Assembly (NCBI GenBank): GCA_937991435.1
Contig: CALKPY010000002.1
Location: forward strand, 9,840-73,839
Origin: an uncultured Acidimicrobiales bacterium
GTDB taxonomy: Bacteria > Actinomycetota > Acidimicrobiia > Acidimicrobiales > UBA10347
Reading direction: 5' to 3'
DNA: 64,000 nt
Part shown: positions 34,461 through 40,294 of the stretch, in pieces
How positions within the stretch are numbered: position 1 is the first letter of the stretch
Layout of the letters: every line of letters starts with the position of its first letter
Made by a program: the position numbers and the translations under genes
Notes under the pieces: model-generated
Database searches by the model: none
Told to the model about the DNA's origin: nothing
The model's input: only the letters and a program-made list of their open reading frames with translations

Positions 34461-35875
34461 GTCGACCGCTCCGCGAGTAGTTCACTTGCAACGGTGACAT
34501 CATCAAAGTCGAAAACGTCGGTGCCAATCGTCTGGGTTCGTTCATGTCCTTTGCCAGCGATGAGAACCACATCACCGGGGCCTGCTAGCGCCAGACCAGC
34601 AGCGATAGCGGCTTGGCGTTCGGTGATGAGTTCAACGTTGGCGCGTTGTTCTAGACCCGAGGCGGCTTCAGCGATGATCGCGTCTGGGTCTTCGCTTCGT
34701 GGATTGTCCGACGTGATGATCACGATGTCTGCTCCCTCTTCGGCAGCGCGCGCCATCATCGGACGTTTCGAGCGATCCCGGTCACCGCCGCAGCCGAAGA
34801 TAATGATGCGCTTGCCGCCGGGGTTTGTGGCGGCGATCGACGAGAGAGCTCGCTGAATGGCGTCGGGCGTGTGCGAGTAGTCGACGAAGACCGTCGGAGC
34901 ATTTCCGCCAGAACCGGGCACGATCTGCATGCGTCCGGCAACCGGCGCGCTGGCGGTGACGCCATCAGCTGCCTGAGACTCAGTGAGCCCTATAGACAAC
35001 GCTGCTTCGGCGGCCATCACGGCGTTGGCGACGTTCATGCGACCCGGCAGCGGCACCGTCATTTGCTGGCCCCGCCAGGTGACCTCAGTATCGGTCACGG
35101 TCGCGTTCAGCACAGACACTTCAGCAAGAGTCACACGATGTGCGGCTGGTCGTCGATCGGCGAGGCGTTGCCCCCACGGATCGTCGACATTGATCAATTC
35201 GTGCAGCGCTCGCCCATCGAACAGACGCGCTTTGGCCTCGAAATACGCATCGATGTTGCCGTGGTAGTTCAGGTGGTCGGGCGTCAAGTTCGTAAATGCC
35301 GCTACCGAGAACGCAGTCGCGTCGACACGTGCTTGATCGAGCGCATGTGACGAAACCTCAATAGCAACTGTGTCAGCGCCGTCGGCGACCATCGCAGCCA
35401 GCCGGCGTTGCAACTCAGTCGCTTCGGGCGTCGTTCGGGTACCTGACAACGTGCCGATCGTCTCAACACGTCGGCCTGCCGACTTGACGACATCGGCGAA
35501 CAGAGAGGTTGTGGTCGTCTTGCCGTTGGTTCCCGTGATCCCGAAGAGTGTGAGCTTCTTGCTCGGGTGCGAGTGAGCTGCGGCAGAGAACGGCCCGAGC
35601 GCCCGTCGAACGTTGTCGGTCCGAATCTGGGGGACCTCGATTGGCAGCCACCGCTCAACAAGCAGTGCCGTCGCGCCTGCGGCAACAGCCGCTTCGGCAT
35701 AGGCGTGTCCATCGGTGACGGCGCCGCCGAACGCGGCGAATAGGCAACCAGGTGACACCTGGCGAGAGTCATGTTCGACATCACCGACGGGTATTGGGAT
35801 CGCGCCGACCAATCTGGTTTCGAGCGCGAGGTTCTTCCCAACTTCGGCAACCAGCGTCTGGATCGACGGACTCAT
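34457..35875 (-). CDS. murE: UDP-MurNAc-L-Ala-D-Glu:meso-diaminopimelate ligase (MurE, not MurF)
   Basis: GITGTNGKTTTTS P-loop, DYSHTPDAIQRAL, GCGGDRDRSKRPMM and the DAP-specifying DNPR motif (ITSDNPRSEDP). ATGA overlaps with ftsI on one side and mraY on the other. Confidence 0.9.
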   Translation of the reverse strand: MSPSIQTLVAEVGKNLALETRLVGAIPIPVGDVEHDSRQVSPGCLFAAFGGAVTDGHAYAEAAVAAGATALLVERWLPIEVPQIRTDNVRRALGPFSAAAHSHPSKKLTLFGITGTNGKTTTTSLFADVVKSAGRRVETIGTLSGTRTTPEATELQRRLAAMVADGADTVAIEVSSHALDQARVDATAFSVAAFTNLTPDHLNYHGNIDAYFEAKARLFDGRALHELINVDDPWGQRLADRRPAAHRVTLAEVSVLNATVTDTEVTWRGQQMTVPLPGRMNVANAVMAAEAALSIGLTESQAADGVTASAPVAGRMQIVPGSGGNAPTVFVDYSHTPDAIQRALSSIAATNPGGKRIIIFGCGGDRDRSKRPMMARAAEEGADIVIITSDNPRSEDPDAIIAEAASGLEQRANVELITERQAAIAAGLALAGPGDVVLIAGKGHERTQTIGTDVFDFDDVTVASELLAERST

Positions 35876-37998
35876 GGCGCTCCGCCATCGGTGAGCGCCT
35901 GAGCCTGATCGGTCGAAGTTGTCGGGTCGACAGCGCCATCAGCAGACGACGACATATCAGTCGAAGCCTGCGCCGCAACTGGGTCTTGGGTCACGTCCGC
36001 TGTTGGTTGCTCGGCAGATTCGCTCACGACTTCTGCCGTTGCCGCCGCCGGGGTCGCGGCTTCAGCTGCGACTCCGGTAACTCGCGGTTCGAGTCGGGCA
36101 GGTATCGATGGCACCCCCCAGGGGGTCACGAGGTTGACCTCAGTCGGCGGTGCAATGCGGAAGTGGCGCATTGCATACGACGCGATGTCAGCAAAGGCTG
36201 GGGCCGCGGCGGTACCTGCGTAGAACGTCGCGGTTGGTTCGTCGATGGTTACGAGTATCGAAAGTTCGGGTTGATCTGCAGGAAGGAAGCCAACGAAGCT
36301 CGACACGTAATGGAAGTTTCCCGCCGCGTCTTCGTAACCAGCGCGTTCGCCGATTGGCTTGCGAGCGGTGCCCGTTTTACCCGCGACGCGGTAGCCCTCG
36401 ATTTGGGCGTTTGTGCCGGTACCGACCGACACGGCGTTCTCGAGCATGCTGCGAACGTCAGCCGCAGTCTGGGCGCTGATAACTGGTCGCGGCTCAGCGC
36501 TTTGTGGAACGGTACGTGTGCCGTCGCTGTCAACGGTTTCGTTTACGAGTTGCAGCGGAACGTAGCGACCTCCATTGGCGATGACGTTGTAGGCAGTGAT
36601 CATCTGAGCCGGCGTAACAGTCACGCCCTGGCCGAGCGACGTGGTGGCGGTAGCAATGCCGCCCCAACGGCCCGGCTCGATCAATAGTCCAGCAGTCTCA
36701 CCGGGAAATCCGAGACCTTGAACCGAGCCAAAACCAAAACTGCGGAGATACGCGTCGAGCAGTTCGCCGCCCAACCGCTCGCCCCACAAAACAGTTCCAA
36801 CGTTTGATGAAACGGTCATGATGTCGGCAAGCGACCAATCCGCTACACCGTGCGCAGTCGTATCTGTGAAGACCGCGTCGTACAACTCATAGGTATCGGG
36901 AACAGGCATCAATGTGGTGGGGTCAGCCAGACCTGCGTCGATGATCGCGGCAAAGGTCATCGCCTTCATGACCGACCCCGGCTCAAACGACCACGAAGTC
37001 GCCATGTTGAGTGAGGGGGCAATGAGCTCGCCCTGGTCGTTGCGGGTCACACTCGCCATGGCGAGGACCTCGCCGGTTTCGGGTTTCGACACGATGACGA
37101 CGCCGCCTTTGGCGCCCATCTCTGCGACCTGACGCGTGAGCACTCGTTCAACTTCGAACTGCAACGACTGGTCGATTGTCAGGTAAAGATCGTGTCCTGG
37201 CTCGGCCGGTTCCACAAGTTCTGGTGCTCCGGGAATCGTTGCGCCGTTGACACCGATCTCAATCAGAAGTTCGCCACCGCGCCCTTCGAGAACCGGATTG
37301 TGTATCGACTCGACTCCGCTCAGGCCTTTTCCGTCGATGTCGACGTTGCCGATGACCGCCCGAGCGAGGTCTTCGCCGCTCGGATGGTGGCGTCGAGGTT
37401 CCTCTGTGGTGAACACGCCGGGTATATCAAGCGCAAGAATCTGTGCTGCCTGTGAATCGGAGACTTGTCGGGCTATCCACGCGAATCGTCCTTCGCCAGC
37501 CATTCGTTCGCGTACGGTTTCCACGTCAAGACCAACGAGCGGCGCCAGCTTGGTCGCGTCGCGCACAGGGTCTTCGACAAACTTGGGATCGACGAAGAAC
37601 GAGGTACTCGGCAGCGACACGGCCAGCGCACTGCCTCCTCGGTCATAGATATCTCCCCTACCGCCAGCGAGTTGGACTGTGCGGAATCGTTGCTGTCGAC
37701 CAATCTCGACGAACGCAGCGGCGTCTCGAAGCTGCAGGTCGACAAGCCGGTACACGAGCCCGCCGGCCACCACGCTCATGACCAAGAGTACGGCAAGGAG
37801 CCGCCGAGCGAGATCTGGCGGCGCTCCCACCGTTGCGCTCGGTGCCAGGCGACGACCCGCGACTCGACGTCGCTGCTTAGCGTTGGTAGTGGACTCGCGT
37901 GCTGTACGTCGAGAGGTATTGCGCGTGCGTTCAGCCGCTGCTCTACGGTCTTTCGCGGGTTTGGGCGCGGCCGGACGGCGTCGCAACGTTGCGGTCAT
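35872..37998 (-). CDS. ftsI: Class B penicillin-binding protein (FtsI/PBP3-type transpeptidase)
   Basis: SxxK (GSVMKAM), SxN (SSNVG) and KTGT (AGKTGTA) motifs. Basic cytoplasmic N-tail plus a single TM. Low-complexity Ala/Thr/Ser-rich C-terminal tail. Confidence 0.92.
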   Translation of the reverse strand: MTATLRRRPAAPKPAKDRRAAAERTRNTSRRTARESTTNAKQRRRVAGRRLAPSATVGAPPDLARRLLAVLLVMSVVAGGLVYRLVDLQLRDAAAFVEIGRQQRFRTVQLAGGRGDIYDRGGSALAVSLPSTSFFVDPKFVEDPVRDATKLAPLVGLDVETVRERMAGEGRFAWIARQVSDSQAAQILALDIPGVFTTEEPRRHHPSGEDLARAVIGNVDIDGKGLSGVESIHNPVLEGRGGELLIEIGVNGATIPGAPELVEPAEPGHDLYLTIDQSLQFEVERVLTRQVAEMGAKGGVVIVSKPETGEVLAMASVTRNDQGELIAPSLNMATSWSFEPGSVMKAMTFAAIIDAGLADPTTLMPVPDTYELYDAVFTDTTAHGVADWSLADIMTVSSNVGTVLWGERLGGELLDAYLRSFGFGSVQGLGFPGETAGLLIEPGRWGGIATATTSLGQGVTVTPAQMITAYNVIANGGRYVPLQLVNETVDSDGTRTVPQSAEPRPVISAQTAADVRSMLENAVSVGTGTNAQIEGYRVAGKTGTARKPIGERAGYEDAAGNFHYVSSFVGFLPADQPELSILVTIDEPTATFYAGTAAAPAFADIASYAMRHFRIAPPTEVNLVTPWGVPSIPARLEPRVTGVAAEAATPAAATAEVVSESAEQPTADVTQDPVAAQASTDMSSSADGAVDPTTSTDQAQALTDGGAP

Positions 37999-38456
37999 TG
38001 ACTGCCTCGTAGCTGAGCTGACGCGACTCGAAGCACGCGATCGTCGAGTTCCGCTGGGCTTCCTTGCAGATACACGACGGCAGGCGCCTCGATCATGCCC
38101 AACGTCTTTGCCTCACGCACGATGCGGGCCGGGGCTTCGAGCTGTGCGAGTTCGAGACTGAGTATCTGGGCTTCGACCTCAAGGGTCGCTATCTGGCGGT
38201 TTCGTTCGTCGAGGTCATGTTGACGTTCGATGATCTTGGCGTGGAGCACGAGCCCACCCACGAGGCCGATCACGACCGTTACCGCAAGGGTGGTGCCGAG
38301 AAATCGCACAAGTCGGCTGGCCATGCTGACGCCACCGTCGATCACCCGGAACGAGCGCGTCGCGCGTTGATCGACAGGATCACTATGTCCCGGTTGTGCG
38401 TGGTCGGGGTCGGCAAGCACCGCGGCACTGCCGAAACGGTCGAATGTGATGGTCAT
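37995..38456 (-). CDS. ftsL: FtsL-like septation protein (single TM plus coiled coil)
   Basis: 153 aa with TM segment FLGTTLAVTVVIGLVGGLVL followed by a heptad-like region. Canonical slot between rsmH and ftsI, with 4-nt overlaps on both sides. Confidence 0.7.
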   Translation of the reverse strand: MTITFDRFGSAAVLADPDHAQPGHSDPVDQRATRSFRVIDGGVSMASRLVRFLGTTLAVTVVIGLVGGLVLHAKIIERQHDLDERNRQIATLEVEAQILSLELAQLEAPARIVREAKTLGMIEAPAVVYLQGSPAELDDRVLRVASAQLRGSQ

Positions 38457-39415
38457 GATGTCGTCGCCTTGTCGTTTAGTCGCTCAAAGCAGCGCAAGCG
38501 GGCGCTTGTACTTCGGCGGTTCGTTGCTTGTTCGATTTGGGAAGCTCTGCGAAATCGCGGAAGAATGGGCTGTACTCGGCGGACCGCATCGCAGGCACAT
38601 CCGAGATCGGTCGGACAGGTGCAGCCGCCGGTCTCGGCGAGTGCAATGGTGTGCTTGGTGATTCGATCCTCACCGGAGTGATACGTCAGTACCGCGCCCC
38701 GACCACCTGGCACGAGGGCATCGATCGCAGCGTTGATGGCGGGTTCGATCTGTTCGAGTTCGTCATTGACCGCAATCCGAATGGCCTGAAACGTGCGCTT
38801 GGCCGGGTGTCCACCGGTACGACGTGTGGCGGCTGGAATCGCGTTGATCACAATCTCGGCAAGCGAAGCAGTCGATGCGATCGGCCGATTTGCGATGATT
38901 CGATCAGCAATCCGGCCGGCGAAACGCTCGTCAGCGCCATCGCGTAACATTTGCACGAGCGCGCCCCGGGGCCACTCGTTGACAATGTCGGCAGCAGTTC
39001 GCGGGTCGTCGCTGTTCATACGCATGTCGAGCGGCCCATCAAGCCGGTAGCTGAATCCGCGATCGGCGATGTCTAGTTGCGGCGAGCTGACACCAAGGTC
39101 AAACAACACCGCCGTGACTGGTTCGTCGACTGCGGTGCGCTCAAGAACGGACCGTATTTGGTCGAATCGGGCCGCAACGATGGTCACTCGTTCATGATGC
39201 GGACTGAGATGTTCGAGGGCAGCGGCGCGGGCCACCGGATCGCGGTCGATTCCGACAAGCTTTAGATCAGATCGCTGGTCGAGCACCGCCTTGGCGTGTC
39301 CGGCACCGCCAAGTGTGGCGTCGACAAAGATGCCAGGCGGAACCGTCGAGAAGATCTCAAGGATCTCACGGAGCATGACCGGTTCGTGTTCAAAGGTGGT
39401 GGGGGAAGTAGTCAC
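38453..39415 (-). CDS. rsmH: 16S rRNA m4C1402 methyltransferase RsmH (MraW)
   Basis: HEPVMLREILEIF, DATLGGAGHA, FDLGVSSPQLD and TYHSGEDR motifs. I prefer GTG 39415 (MTTSPTTFEHEPV..., 320 aa). The longest ORF (ATG 39556) would read through a strongly structured inverted repeat. Confidence 0.88.
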   Translation of the reverse strand: MTTSPTTFEHEPVMLREILEIFSTVPPGIFVDATLGGAGHAKAVLDQRSDLKLVGIDRDPVARAAALEHLSPHHERVTIVAARFDQIRSVLERTAVDEPVTAVLFDLGVSSPQLDIADRGFSYRLDGPLDMRMNSDDPRTAADIVNEWPRGALVQMLRDGADERFAGRIADRIIANRPIASTASLAEIVINAIPAATRRTGGHPAKRTFQAIRIAVNDELEQIEPAINAAIDALVPGGRGAVLTYHSGEDRITKHTIALAETGGCTCPTDLGCACDAVRRVQPILPRFRRASQIEQATNRRSTSARLRCFERLNDKATTS

Positions 39416-39433
39416 TGGTTGCCTGCGAAAACA

Positions 39434-39566
39434 ACCAGCGGCCTGTCGGCCGCTTCCCGGAAAACTGGCGTCTGCACGATTTTCTCTTCGCAACAGACTC
39501 GATGGCAAGCGGGCGGAGTAGGGGCTCTCCATCGTGTTCTCCGGGAAACGGCCCACAGGCCGCTGG
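39434..39566 (-). ncRNA. Structured element in the mraZ-rsmH spacer: 26-nt arms (39434-39459 / 39541-39566) enclosing 81 nt with nested helices; candidate cis-regulatory leader of rsmH
   Basis: The arms are reverse complements at 24/26 positions. In the sense (minus-strand) RNA, 25/26 positions pair, including one G-U wobble. Interior helices CACGAU/AUCGUG and CGAUGG/CCAUCG overlap. Confidence 0.45.
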
Positions 39567-39677
39567 ATTGGGGGGTGATTTTGGTGAGGTTTGAGGTCTC
39601 AGTTGTTCTTTCGTGGTGAGTGTTGTGTCGTTCCGCTGTTCCGCAGGTTTGCGGTACGCCGGTGACGCCGGCGGGCA

Positions 39678-40100
39678 TCACAGCAGATTGGAGATGTCGG
39701 GCAGCTCATCGAGGGCGGCGTCTGGGCTGGTGACTTCGGCAGCAAAGACGGCGAGATGGTTGGCAACGCCAACAATTGTTGCGTCTTTGTCGAGGTCAGC
39801 CCAGGTGCGAAGTCGGTCGGGCACGTTGATGCGACCTTGTGAGTCGATTGGCGACTGAGCGATTGCAGCCATGACGTTGGTGAGCTGTTTCTGAGTGAGC
39901 TTTCCGTCGCGCTTGGCCTGCTGCAGGCGATCGACCATTCCCCTAAATGCTTCGGCTGGGTAAACGCTGAGGCAGTGTTGATTGATTTCGGGAACGATGA
40001 AACAGACCTGCTCTTCAGCAAATGCGTCACGAAAGACGGCGGGTAGCGCCAATCGTCCTTTGGCATCAATGCGATGCGTATGTGAGCCGTAGAAGTCCAC
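39678..40100 (-). CDS. mraZ: Transcriptional regulator MraZ
   Basis: 140 aa. MDFYGSHTHRIDAKGRLALPAVFR and a second DxxGR repeat (PIDSQGRINVPDRLR). GTG start. First gene of the dcw cluster. Confidence 0.95.
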   Translation of the reverse strand: MDFYGSHTHRIDAKGRLALPAVFRDAFAEEQVCFIVPEINQHCLSVYPAEAFRGMVDRLQQAKRDGKLTQKQLTNVMAAIAQSPIDSQGRINVPDRLRTWADLDKDATIVGVANHLAVFAAEVTSPDAALDELPDISNLL

Positions 40101-40220: not shown

Positions 40221-40294
40221 CCACAATAGACACATGATCCCCACTAGTCAACACATTTCCCCACTTCTCCCCACTTGACTCCACCCGGATCCAC
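40221..40294 (-). promoter_or_regulatory. 10-bp-phased array of GTGG(GG) repeats overlapping the promoter; candidate MraZ operator
   Basis: On the plus strand CCAC begins at 40221, 40241, 40261, 40271, 40281 and 40291, with CAC at the intervening turns. Three perfect TCCCCACT octamers (AGTGGGGA on the minus strand) lie at 40238, 40258 and 40268. Confidence 0.5.
40223..40251 (-). promoter_or_regulatory. Putative dcw/mraZ promoter: -35 TTGACT, 17-nt spacer, -10 TATTGT (minus strand)
   Basis: Minus strand reads TTGACTagtggggatcatgtgtcTATTGT. The -35 is at plus 40246-40251 and the -10 at 40223-40228, about 120 nt upstream of the mraZ GTG. Confidence 0.5.

Follow-up and report, generated by a model that had tools for sequence, protein, structure and literature searches.

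Why should a long and nearly perfect inverted repeat lie between mraZ and rsmH? We addressed this question in a stretch of 64,000 nucleotides (hereafter the window) of contig CALKPY010000002.1, from an uncultured Acidimicrobiales bacterium, where the repeat is followed on the minus strand by rsmH, the gene of the 16S rRNA m4C1402 methyltransferase. Covariance modelling identifies the repeat as the closing helix (P1) of a conserved three-way-junction RNA made of helices P1, P2, and P3, and the element is nearly certainly a conserved RNA structure of the sense strand. It represents a structured RNA family that is apparently uncatalogued. Post-transcriptional control of rsmH through the P1 helix is likely, and we give a probability of about one half to the fuller reading, in which the element would be a cis-acting post-transcriptional operator of rsmH and a factor bound to its loops would relieve or set the block imposed by P1. 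The repeat is genuine, and of greater interest than the initial annotation of this DNA had assumed. That annotation had missed that the repeat is the outer helix of a widespread family and that its 3' strand carries a Shine-Dalgarno-like (SD-like) run, mostly together with a start codon.

Read on the operon-sense (minus) strand, the arm at 39566..39541 (5'-CCAGCGGCCUGUGGGCCGUUUCCCGG) pairs with CCGGGAAGCGGCCGACAGGCCGCUGG at 39460..39435 through 24 Watson-Crick pairs, one U-G wobble, and one G-G mismatch. This agrees with the arms having been described as reverse complements at 24/26 positions, with 25/26 paired in the sense RNA; the plus-strand arm that had been placed at 39434-39459 actually lies at 39435-39460. 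According to a repeat finder, the arms reach 31 nt (39536-39566 and 39435-39465, 90% complementary, 70 nt apart), and among inverted repeats within 300 nt this one stands far ahead of the other three pairs in the window, which are 78-80% complementary. No second copy of an arm was found in the 64 kb, dinucleotide shuffles giving 0 arm matches, and the exact 26-nt arm had no match in the genome collection that we searched, which does not include the source genome among its species representatives. A search of the window for tRNA and tmRNA genes found none. The sense RNA folds with an energy of -90.7 kcal/mol (z = -8.6, no shuffle being equally good) and the antisense RNA with -82.6 kcal/mol (z = -5.3).

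The first indication of a family came from the neighbouring protein. Several divergent RsmH proteins (51-63% identical) carry an N-terminal extension with a peptide, MEGPYSARFPSS..GEKSR, that corresponds to the interior of the element in the window, and the extension of one of them (P0010) consists of the identical nucleotides read in another frame (RRTRWRAPTPPACHRV). Since one nucleotide stretch is read in differing frames, the conservation is at the level of nucleotides and not of protein. When the core GATGGAGRGCCCCTACTCCGCCCGCTT was sought by fuzzy matching, it turned up immediately ahead of rsmH in five Acidimicrobiales genome loci retrieved by their RsmH alone, and a metagenome search with an 18-base pattern of the P2 loop (TGGANNNNCCNNACTCCGCCCGCT) gave at least 120 contigs carrying it. 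Among the matches listed, 117/120 have mraZ upstream and/or rsmH downstream wherever the contig permits; the three exceptions (L082, L157, and L165) share the pattern alone.

We then described the family by a covariance model, R1 (78 non-redundant elements, 126 positions, 44 base pairs). The window, itself among the 78 seeds, scores 108.2 bits over the full model length (E = 1.2e-20), and for L201 and L204, its nearest independent relatives, the scores are 105.9 and 96.8 bits. The model recovers the element in 15 Acidimicrobiia loci fetched via RsmH alone and, weakly, in two more (L010 and L015). Its matches include loci lacking the exact loop pattern (L001, L003, L004, L007, L014, L023, L056, L057, L080, and the weak L010 and L015), and the additional positive loci all belong to Acidimicrobiales, Acidimicrobiaceae, Ilumatobacteraceae, or unclassified metagenome-assembled genomes (MAGs) of Actinomycetota. 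At E<=0.1 there is no match in the loci of Streptomyces, Nocardia, Kutzneria, Saccharopolyspora, and Embleya, nor in those of Coriobacteriia, Nitriliruptoria, Iamiaceae (L006), and Firmicutes. With the filters off, palindromic matches of 22-28 bits appear elsewhere in an Actinomycetes locus (L051), on both strands and away from rsmH, and a Firmicutes locus (L060) reaches 18.6 bits (E = 0.39). Judging from these sequences, the family appears specific to Acidimicrobiia and present as a single copy per locus, between mraZ and rsmH.

Some related lineages do without the element, either through loss or because they never acquired it: mraZ and rsmH overlap in L206 (767-2175), with no spacer and no motif, and a long contig from the same sample, L207 (547-2211), has a spacer of 207 nt with the motif at 106 bits. 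Two divergent members (L192:7891-7982 and L142:165-257) have the long helix and a P2 hairpin with the conserved loop and lack P3; the RsmH encoded beside the former is 39% identical to that of the window. Searches of Rfam 15 with the whole window (at the gathering score) and with the region 39300-39800 (at E<=10) matched no family, and in 20 related loci at the gathering score and 8 typical ones at E<=10 the sole matches were to the mraW motif in Actinomycetes controls. Within the limited literature that could be searched, we found no published account of the Acidimicrobiia structure.

In the family consensus, P1 has about 30 bp (29-31 bp) and is nearly perfect in all members (CGCUCAUCUGCAGYCUCCCGGnnnGCA / GYnnnCCGGGGGGCUGCAGAUGAGCG). 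P2 (GAUGG-[AMRGCCCCUACUCCGCCCGCUUS]-CCAUC) has a near-invariant loop, ...CCCCUACUCCGCCCGCUU..., and P3 (CGGG-GAGAMAU-CCCG) has a variable lower stem and a GAGAMA loop. The segment CUCC(G/A)CCC of the P2 loop is the most conserved stretch of the entire element: the 15 loci chosen without the pattern all have CUCC and CCC, and 14/15 have the G in between. In the window, where all these parts lie on the minus strand, the 5' strand of P1 (CCAGCGGCCUGUGGGCCGUUUCCCGGAGAAC, 39536..39566) is delimited by the repeat finder and the covariance model; within it, the pyrimidines UUUCCC are paired to the purine run of the opposite strand, and UGU (39557..39555) to an ACA there. The strands of P2, CGAUGG (39529..39534, holding ATG 39532) and CCAUCG (39500..39505), are supported by the model and by pair covariation, and enclose the apical loop AGAGCCCCUACUCCGCCCGCUUG (39506..39528), with the loop core ACUCCGCCCGCU at 39519..39508. 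The P3 hairpin (39470..39498), supported by fold, model, and covariation, consists of GUCUGUUGCGA, the loop AGAGAAAA (39487..39480), and UCGUGCAGAC. The 3' strand of P1, GUUUUCCGGGAAGCGGCCGACAGGCCGCUGG (39435..39465), contains the purine run GGGAAG at 39458..39453 and the ACA at 39446..39444. A promoter-like match (TTGCCA-18-GAAAAT, 9/12) at 39479-39508 of the minus strand lies inside the element, across P2 and P3, and is probably due to chance because the family consensus does not preserve its hexamers.

The structure is supported by very strong covariation, which the initial annotation had suggested checking. Pairs were counted on an alignment of 88 sequences (A5) fitted to R1, a procedure that favours the structure: 91.2% of the cells are in standard pairs, against 75.2% when partners are shuffled and 35-47% when they are slid by 1-3 columns. 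Compensatory changes occur in 39/44 pairs (652 cells), and 0/500 shuffles attained any of five pairing measures. Covarying pairs are found in all three helices (P1 27/29, P2 4/5, P3 8/10), as in the P2 variants GAUGG/CCAUC, GGUGG/CCGCC, and AAUGG/CCAUU. An independent run of MAFFT and RNAalifold gave P1, with compensatory changes in 23/33 predicted pairs. RNAalifold also proposed an alternative pairing of the loop CUCCG with GGGG of P3, which we rejected, since most members show no variation on either side of it and GGGG is missing from the window. Alignment A5 contains 280 G-U cells against 105 A-C cells, and R1 gives 54-134 bits on the sense strand and 25-52 bits on the antisense strand. The excess of G-U and the lower antisense scores indicate that the functional molecule is the sense RNA, which bears out the selection on the sense transcript that had been proposed from a single wobble pair.

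Further helices had been described within the repeat as nested and mutually exclusive, and all of them are present in the window. One, CGAUGG/CCAUCG (39534..39529 with 39505..39500), is conserved and is P2. Its supposed switch-like competitor, CACGAU/AUCGUG, is not: 32.8% of its cells are paired, against 32.6% in shuffles, and the pairing is a coincidence of the window sequence. The self-hairpins of the arms (CGGCC-N4-GGCCG) do exist, but are confined to the window and its nearest relatives; they occur in both arms because a palindrome in one arm automatically recurs in the other.

What could such a helix do? Its 3' strand has six consecutive purines in 88/88 sequences (columns 144-149), their partners are always pyrimidines, and these pairs never flip strand, which the pairs on both flanks do. 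By its sequence, this strand-fixed run looks like a constraint of the SD type. An ATG or GTG lies 6 nt past it in 64/88 sequences. We followed this embedded codon in the 84 elements with a locatable RsmH HxPVM motif: it is the rsmH start (<=12 codons before HxPVM) in 11/84 lineages (e.g., L011, L087, L107, L112, L171, L185, L198, L002, and L057), it is in frame with rsmH and would give a longer N-terminus in 9/84, it is out of frame or terminated (4-343 codons) in 40/84, and there is no start codon at this position in 24/84, the window included. The universal purine run, the start codon 6 nt further on, and its use as the rsmH start in 11 lineages together make occlusion of the ribosome-binding site (RBS) the best-supported candidate mechanism. 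The simplest reading is that P1 arose to occlude the RBS of rsmH and that many rsmH starts later moved downstream, the helix and its purines being retained. We also considered translational coupling between an upstream ORF (uORF) and rsmH and rejected it, as the uORF spans 4-343 codons with no consistent stop-to-start geometry, a weak result given an imperfect start filter.

The window illustrates such a displacement. We compared it with its closest relatives (L201, L203, L204, L084, L097, and L099; RsmH 63-65% identical). The AUG found in the P1 3' strand of L201, L203, and L204 is ACA in the window, and the CAU of their 5' strand is UGU, so that two pairs have changed on both sides with pairing intact; the purine run GGGAAG is retained despite the loss of AUG. 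With the embedded AUG replaced, rsmH would therefore start at GTG 39415, 20 nt after P1, and control in the window would act via the adjacent structure or processing and not by direct occlusion of the start codon. A small hairpin, GGUUGUUU-UCGC-AGGCAACC (39417..39436, minus strand), follows straight after P1, includes a U-rich UUGUUUU, and ends 1 nt ahead of the GTG. Neither the U-run nor the hairpin was found in the closest relatives; they are lineage-specific and their meaning is uncertain.

We infer translational regulation by occlusion, a factor binding the loops, and the identity of that factor from this arrangement. The very stable P1 would sequester the SD-like purine run and, in most lineages, the start codon as well. 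The P2 loop (...CUCCGCCC...) and the GAGAMA loop of P3 would form the surface recognized by a trans-acting factor, which would set this block or relieve it, with RsmH as the preferred candidate, and the operator would act on rsmH and, via polarity, on the ftsL, penicillin-binding protein, and mur genes behind it. A sequence-specific partner is suggested because the invariant P2 and P3 loops are needed for neither occlusion nor cleavage. P1 is too long to be a marginal switching helix, which suggests cleavage, with RNase III as the obvious candidate, or a decision taken during transcription; RNase III cleavage of the long duplex would then be a likely component of the pathway.

The case for RsmH comes from the P2 loop. 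Its core, ACUCCGCCCG, matches ACACCGCCCG of the 16S rRNA at 9/10 positions (1396-1405 in the canonical numbering, as for C1402), and the two share CCGCCCG, an exact 7-mer with C1402 at its centre. An annotated E. coli 16S gene (1541 nt) served to verify both the rRNA sequence and its position. In composition-preserving shuffles of the loop, the exact 7-mer has P = 0.015 and any 7-mer covering C1402 has P = 0.054, which makes the likeness to the RsmH target strand suggestive. If the loop mimics this strand of the decoding centre, RsmH in its free form, or an intermediate of late 30S assembly that competes for it, could bind the leader and feed back on the translation or processing of rsmH and the division genes. 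We regard this specific proposal as attractive but doubtful. There is a precedent in the ermC rRNA methylase, for which Breidt and Dubnau reportedly described translational autoregulation in 1990. As in the ribosomal-protein leaders and ermC, which are autoregulatory leaders that mimic rRNA, we find a structured leader ahead of a gene for an rRNA-binding product, a loop resembling the rRNA target, and an SD-like tract. The difference is that the resemblance is short here, with a 1.5-5% chance of arising at random. We also searched the window for a partner complementary to the P2 loop, and found only the loop itself (6 matches at <=2 mismatches, against 9.4 expected).

Several observations weigh against control of rsmH by a factor bound to the loops. 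E. coli RsmH methylates 30S subunits and not naked 16S rRNA (PMC2831307), and this requirement for 30S makes a naked-RNA mimic bound by RsmH less credible. The loop of the Rfam mraW motif in Actinomycetes, ACUUCCCC, does not contain CCGCCCG. Direct occlusion of the rsmH start concerns a minority of lineages, given the 40/84 with an out-of-frame or terminated codon and the 24/84 with none. Finally, a helix of ~30 bp is too stable to be opened simply by a ligand or a protein; cleavage, a helicase, or co-transcriptional kinetics would be needed.

The alternative that survives best is possible though not probable: P1 would be an element for RNase III processing or stability and nothing more. Its cleavage would uncouple mraZ from the rsmH-dcw message and set the MraZ:RsmH ratio, with no factor-dependent control of translation, and the P2/P3 core would perhaps be released as a stable excised RNA. 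Duplexes of >=20 bp are substrates of RNase III, and P1, with arms of 31 nt and 29 pairs in the model, exceeds this length; it is near-perfect over 29-31 bp in all members and is kept even where there is no embedded start codon. Long stems processed by RNase III are known from the rnc and pnp leaders and from the processing stalk of 16S rRNA; they share with the element a long-range inverted repeat forming a duplex of >=25 bp around a structured core on a polycistronic transcript, but they enclose no core with invariant loops of this kind. According to Maeda et al. in 2016, RNase III cleavage of mraZ mRNA is said to matter for cell division in Corynebacterium glutamicum, and in enterobacteria stable RNA fragments are cut from the mraZ-rsmH-ftsL-ftsI operon (PMC6156199). 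What processing leaves unexplained is the near-invariant P2 loop of 12-20 nt, the conserved P3 loop, the strand-fixed purines, and the start codon at SD spacing. It is moreover compatible with an operator of rsmH and does not exclude it.

A riboswitch would place the specificity in the junction, which would bind a small molecule such as S-adenosylmethionine, S-adenosylhomocysteine (SAM/SAH), or a cell-wall precursor, with P1 as the expression platform. A three-way junction with highly conserved nucleotides, an SD-like tract within P1, and a place in the 5' leader of a gene for a SAM-dependent enzyme, with mur genes behind it, would fit this idea. We consider it improbable, as the conserved nucleotides are in the hairpin loops and not in the junction, a P1 of ~30 bp is far past what a ligand could tip, no alternative pairing is conserved (the shuffle-level CACGAU/AUCGUG being the candidate), and no Rfam riboswitch model matches.

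More improbable still is a transcription attenuator restricted to the lineage of the window, in which the 3' arm would fold as AGCGGCC-GACA-GGCCGCU followed by GGUUGUUUUC, in kinetic competition with P1. Both arms can indeed self-fold in the window and its nearest relatives, and a terminator-like scan flags 39454..39437 with a U-rich tail. However, the scan is unspecific (6 terminator-like sites in the 1.15-kb region against 1.2 expected), L201, L203, and L204, the closest relatives, lack the U-tract, as does most of the family, and P1 is far stabler than two short hairpins.

The idea that the stretch codes for protein, either a conserved leader peptide or extra N-terminal residues of RsmH (MEGPYSARFPSS...), bears on where rsmH begins and can be given very little credence. 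Gene callers annotate several MAGs in this way, the translations look conserved, and the frame in the window is open from 39556. Yet the frame of the P2 'AUG' with respect to rsmH varies between lineages (0, 1, or 2), and its ORF often ends at 8-60 codons; P0010 reads the nucleotides in another frame; L007 has an insertion and L080 a deletion of 1 nt; L056 and L001 have no start codon; and the 'AUG' lies in a stem where it covaries with its partner. The inconsistent frames, the indels, and the missing start codons led us to reject a leader peptide or an N-terminal extension for the family. Equally little credence can be given to a mobile or DNA-level palindrome (a miniature inverted-repeat transposable element (MITE), a repetitive extragenic palindromic (REP) sequence, a cruciform, or a site for a DNA-binding protein). 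It would account for a long near-perfect inverted repeat, but the element is a single copy in 64 kb with one match per locus, keeps a constant place in >130 genomes and contigs, is better conserved in its interior than in its arms, and shows compensatory changes, G-U pairs, and strand-asymmetric scores that indicate RNA. Its single copy in the window and its one copy per locus, at mraZ-rsmH, uphold the initial choice of a leader over a MITE.

The rsmH gene (38453..39415, minus strand) is identified by Pfam PF01795 (E = 8.6e-96) and by its homologues. Its best homologues are 63-67% identical, and those with a name come from Actinomycetota or Ilumatobacteraceae MAGs, sequence relationships that mark the host as an actinobacterium of the Acidimicrobiia type. 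The longest rsmH ORF begins with a codon at 39556 that had been read as ATG and is GTG, and there is an in-frame ATG at 39532, inside the P2 stem, where the public annotation begins RsmH (P0001, 359 aa). This public start is almost certainly wrong. The most likely start, from sequence comparison, is GTG at 39413..39415 (MTTSPTTFEHEPVML...), because it is the sole in-frame start downstream of the RNA element, gives a homologue-like protein of 320 aa, and leaves the Pfam MraW profile fully covered (positions 2-308 of 309, matched within residues 8-312). RsmH homologues are mostly 307-320 aa long and start 4-12 codons ahead of the HxPVM motif. The initial annotation had pointed out that this GTG gives an RsmH of normal length and that the longest ORF adds 47 R/S/P-rich residues; the homologues and Pfam favour the GTG, these residues being the translated RNA motif. 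The start codon at 39413-39415 is thus not an AUG, and in E. coli the loss of m4C1402 raises initiation at non-AUG codons (PMC2831307). That under-methylated ribosomes would translate rsmH better, as a built-in feedback, is speculative.

The neighbouring genes also lie on the minus strand. Upstream of the element lies mraZ (39678..40100; Pfam PF02381, E = 1.3e-22; stop codon 39680..39678). The 111 nt between its stop and P1 (39567-39677) are C/A-rich, with two short GC hairpins (GCCGGCGUCACCGGCG and CCGCAAACCUGCGG) and no U-tract, and are unconserved in relatives. Downstream, an ORF of 153 aa (37995-38456) shares 4 nt with the end of rsmH and matches no Pfam family; the gene at the matching position in one relative has a faint DivIC match, and the product is probably an FtsL/DivIC-like division protein. 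It is followed by a class B penicillin-binding protein (35872-37998; Pfam PF00905 and PF03717). MraZ binds direct repeats of the GTGGG type. Upstream of mraZ, the minus strand at 40221-40294 has eight boxes of the GTGG(G/A) type with an exact period of 10 nt (GTGGATCCGG GTGGAGTCAA GTGGGGAGAA GTGGGGAAAT GTGTTGACTA GTGGGGATCA TGTGTCTATT GTGG), overlapping a promoter-like TTGACT-17-TATTGT at 40251..40223. By its sequence, this looks like a candidate array of MraZ operators on the dcw promoter.

The closest known counterpart of the element is the mraW motif (RF01746), described as a cis-regulatory candidate of Actinomycetales (PMC2864571, Weinberg et al. 2010), transcribed within the mraW 5' untranslated region (UTR) in C. 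glutamicum (PMC3890552), and of still unknown function (PMC5640933). It had been raised as the possible identity of the repeat, an identification that does not hold: RF01746 has no match in the window at the gathering score or in 39300-39800 at E<=10, nor in 15 Acidimicrobiia loci at the gathering score (50 bits) or 8 typical members at E<=10. Its positive controls were recovered by the model directly upstream of rsmH (L051 65.6, L063 60.3, and L055 57.6 bits), the control taxa being Nocardia, Kutzneria, and Saccharopolyspora (58-66 bits). Reciprocally, R1 gives true mraW motifs 11-14 bits (E about 0.4-2, filters off). With no RF01746 match at E<=10 and such low reciprocal scores, we rejected homology to RF01746.

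The two leaders nevertheless have much in common. Both occur in Actinomycetota, downstream of mraZ and upstream of mraW/rsmH, as presumed cis-regulators of the 5' UTR; each contains a long helix, which in the mraW motif is about 27-30 bp with a C-run and a G-run at its base, and in both helices the 5' strand is rich in pyrimidines and the 3' strand in G towards the base; and both have a conserved C/U-rich apical loop (ACUUCCCC in the mraW motif, ACUCCGCCC in Acidimicrobiia). The mraW motif is a single long hairpin of Actinomycetales, whereas the element of Acidimicrobiia is a three-way junction with the extra P3, a P2 loop of 22-23 nt, and an SD-like run with a start codon in its 3' strand. 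The members without P3 (L192 and L142) have a shape like the mraW hairpin, yet no RF01746 match; they may be intermediates between the Acidimicrobiia family and simple hairpins of the mraW type. The element is a structural variant of the mraW-motif kind of leader.

These results describe a well-supported structured RNA family that is new to Rfam 15, with >130 loci, a class-wide spread, and very strong covariation, in freshwater, marine, and soil Acidimicrobiia that are abundant yet barely studied. They have a direct consequence for annotation. Public gene calls run over the RNA motif (window 39416-39556) in P0001, P0002, P0010, P0063, P0064, P0077, and P0118, and the resulting spurious RsmH N-termini (MEGPYSARFPSS..GEKSR or RRTRWRAPTPPACHRV) are a systematic error in many MAGs, in which a covariance model could correct the starts. 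They also provide a second, structurally distinct RNA ahead of the gene of the mraW motif, whose function has been unexplained since 2010, and the long helix and C-rich apical loop shared by the two can now be compared. The SD-like tract and start codon held in a helix, together with the likeness to the RsmH target, lead to the hypotheses of RBS occlusion, RNase III processing, and RsmH autoregulation. If the mimicry is true, it would couple ribosome maturation to cell division in Acidimicrobiia, and the mraW motif of Actinomycetes would be an analogous operator.

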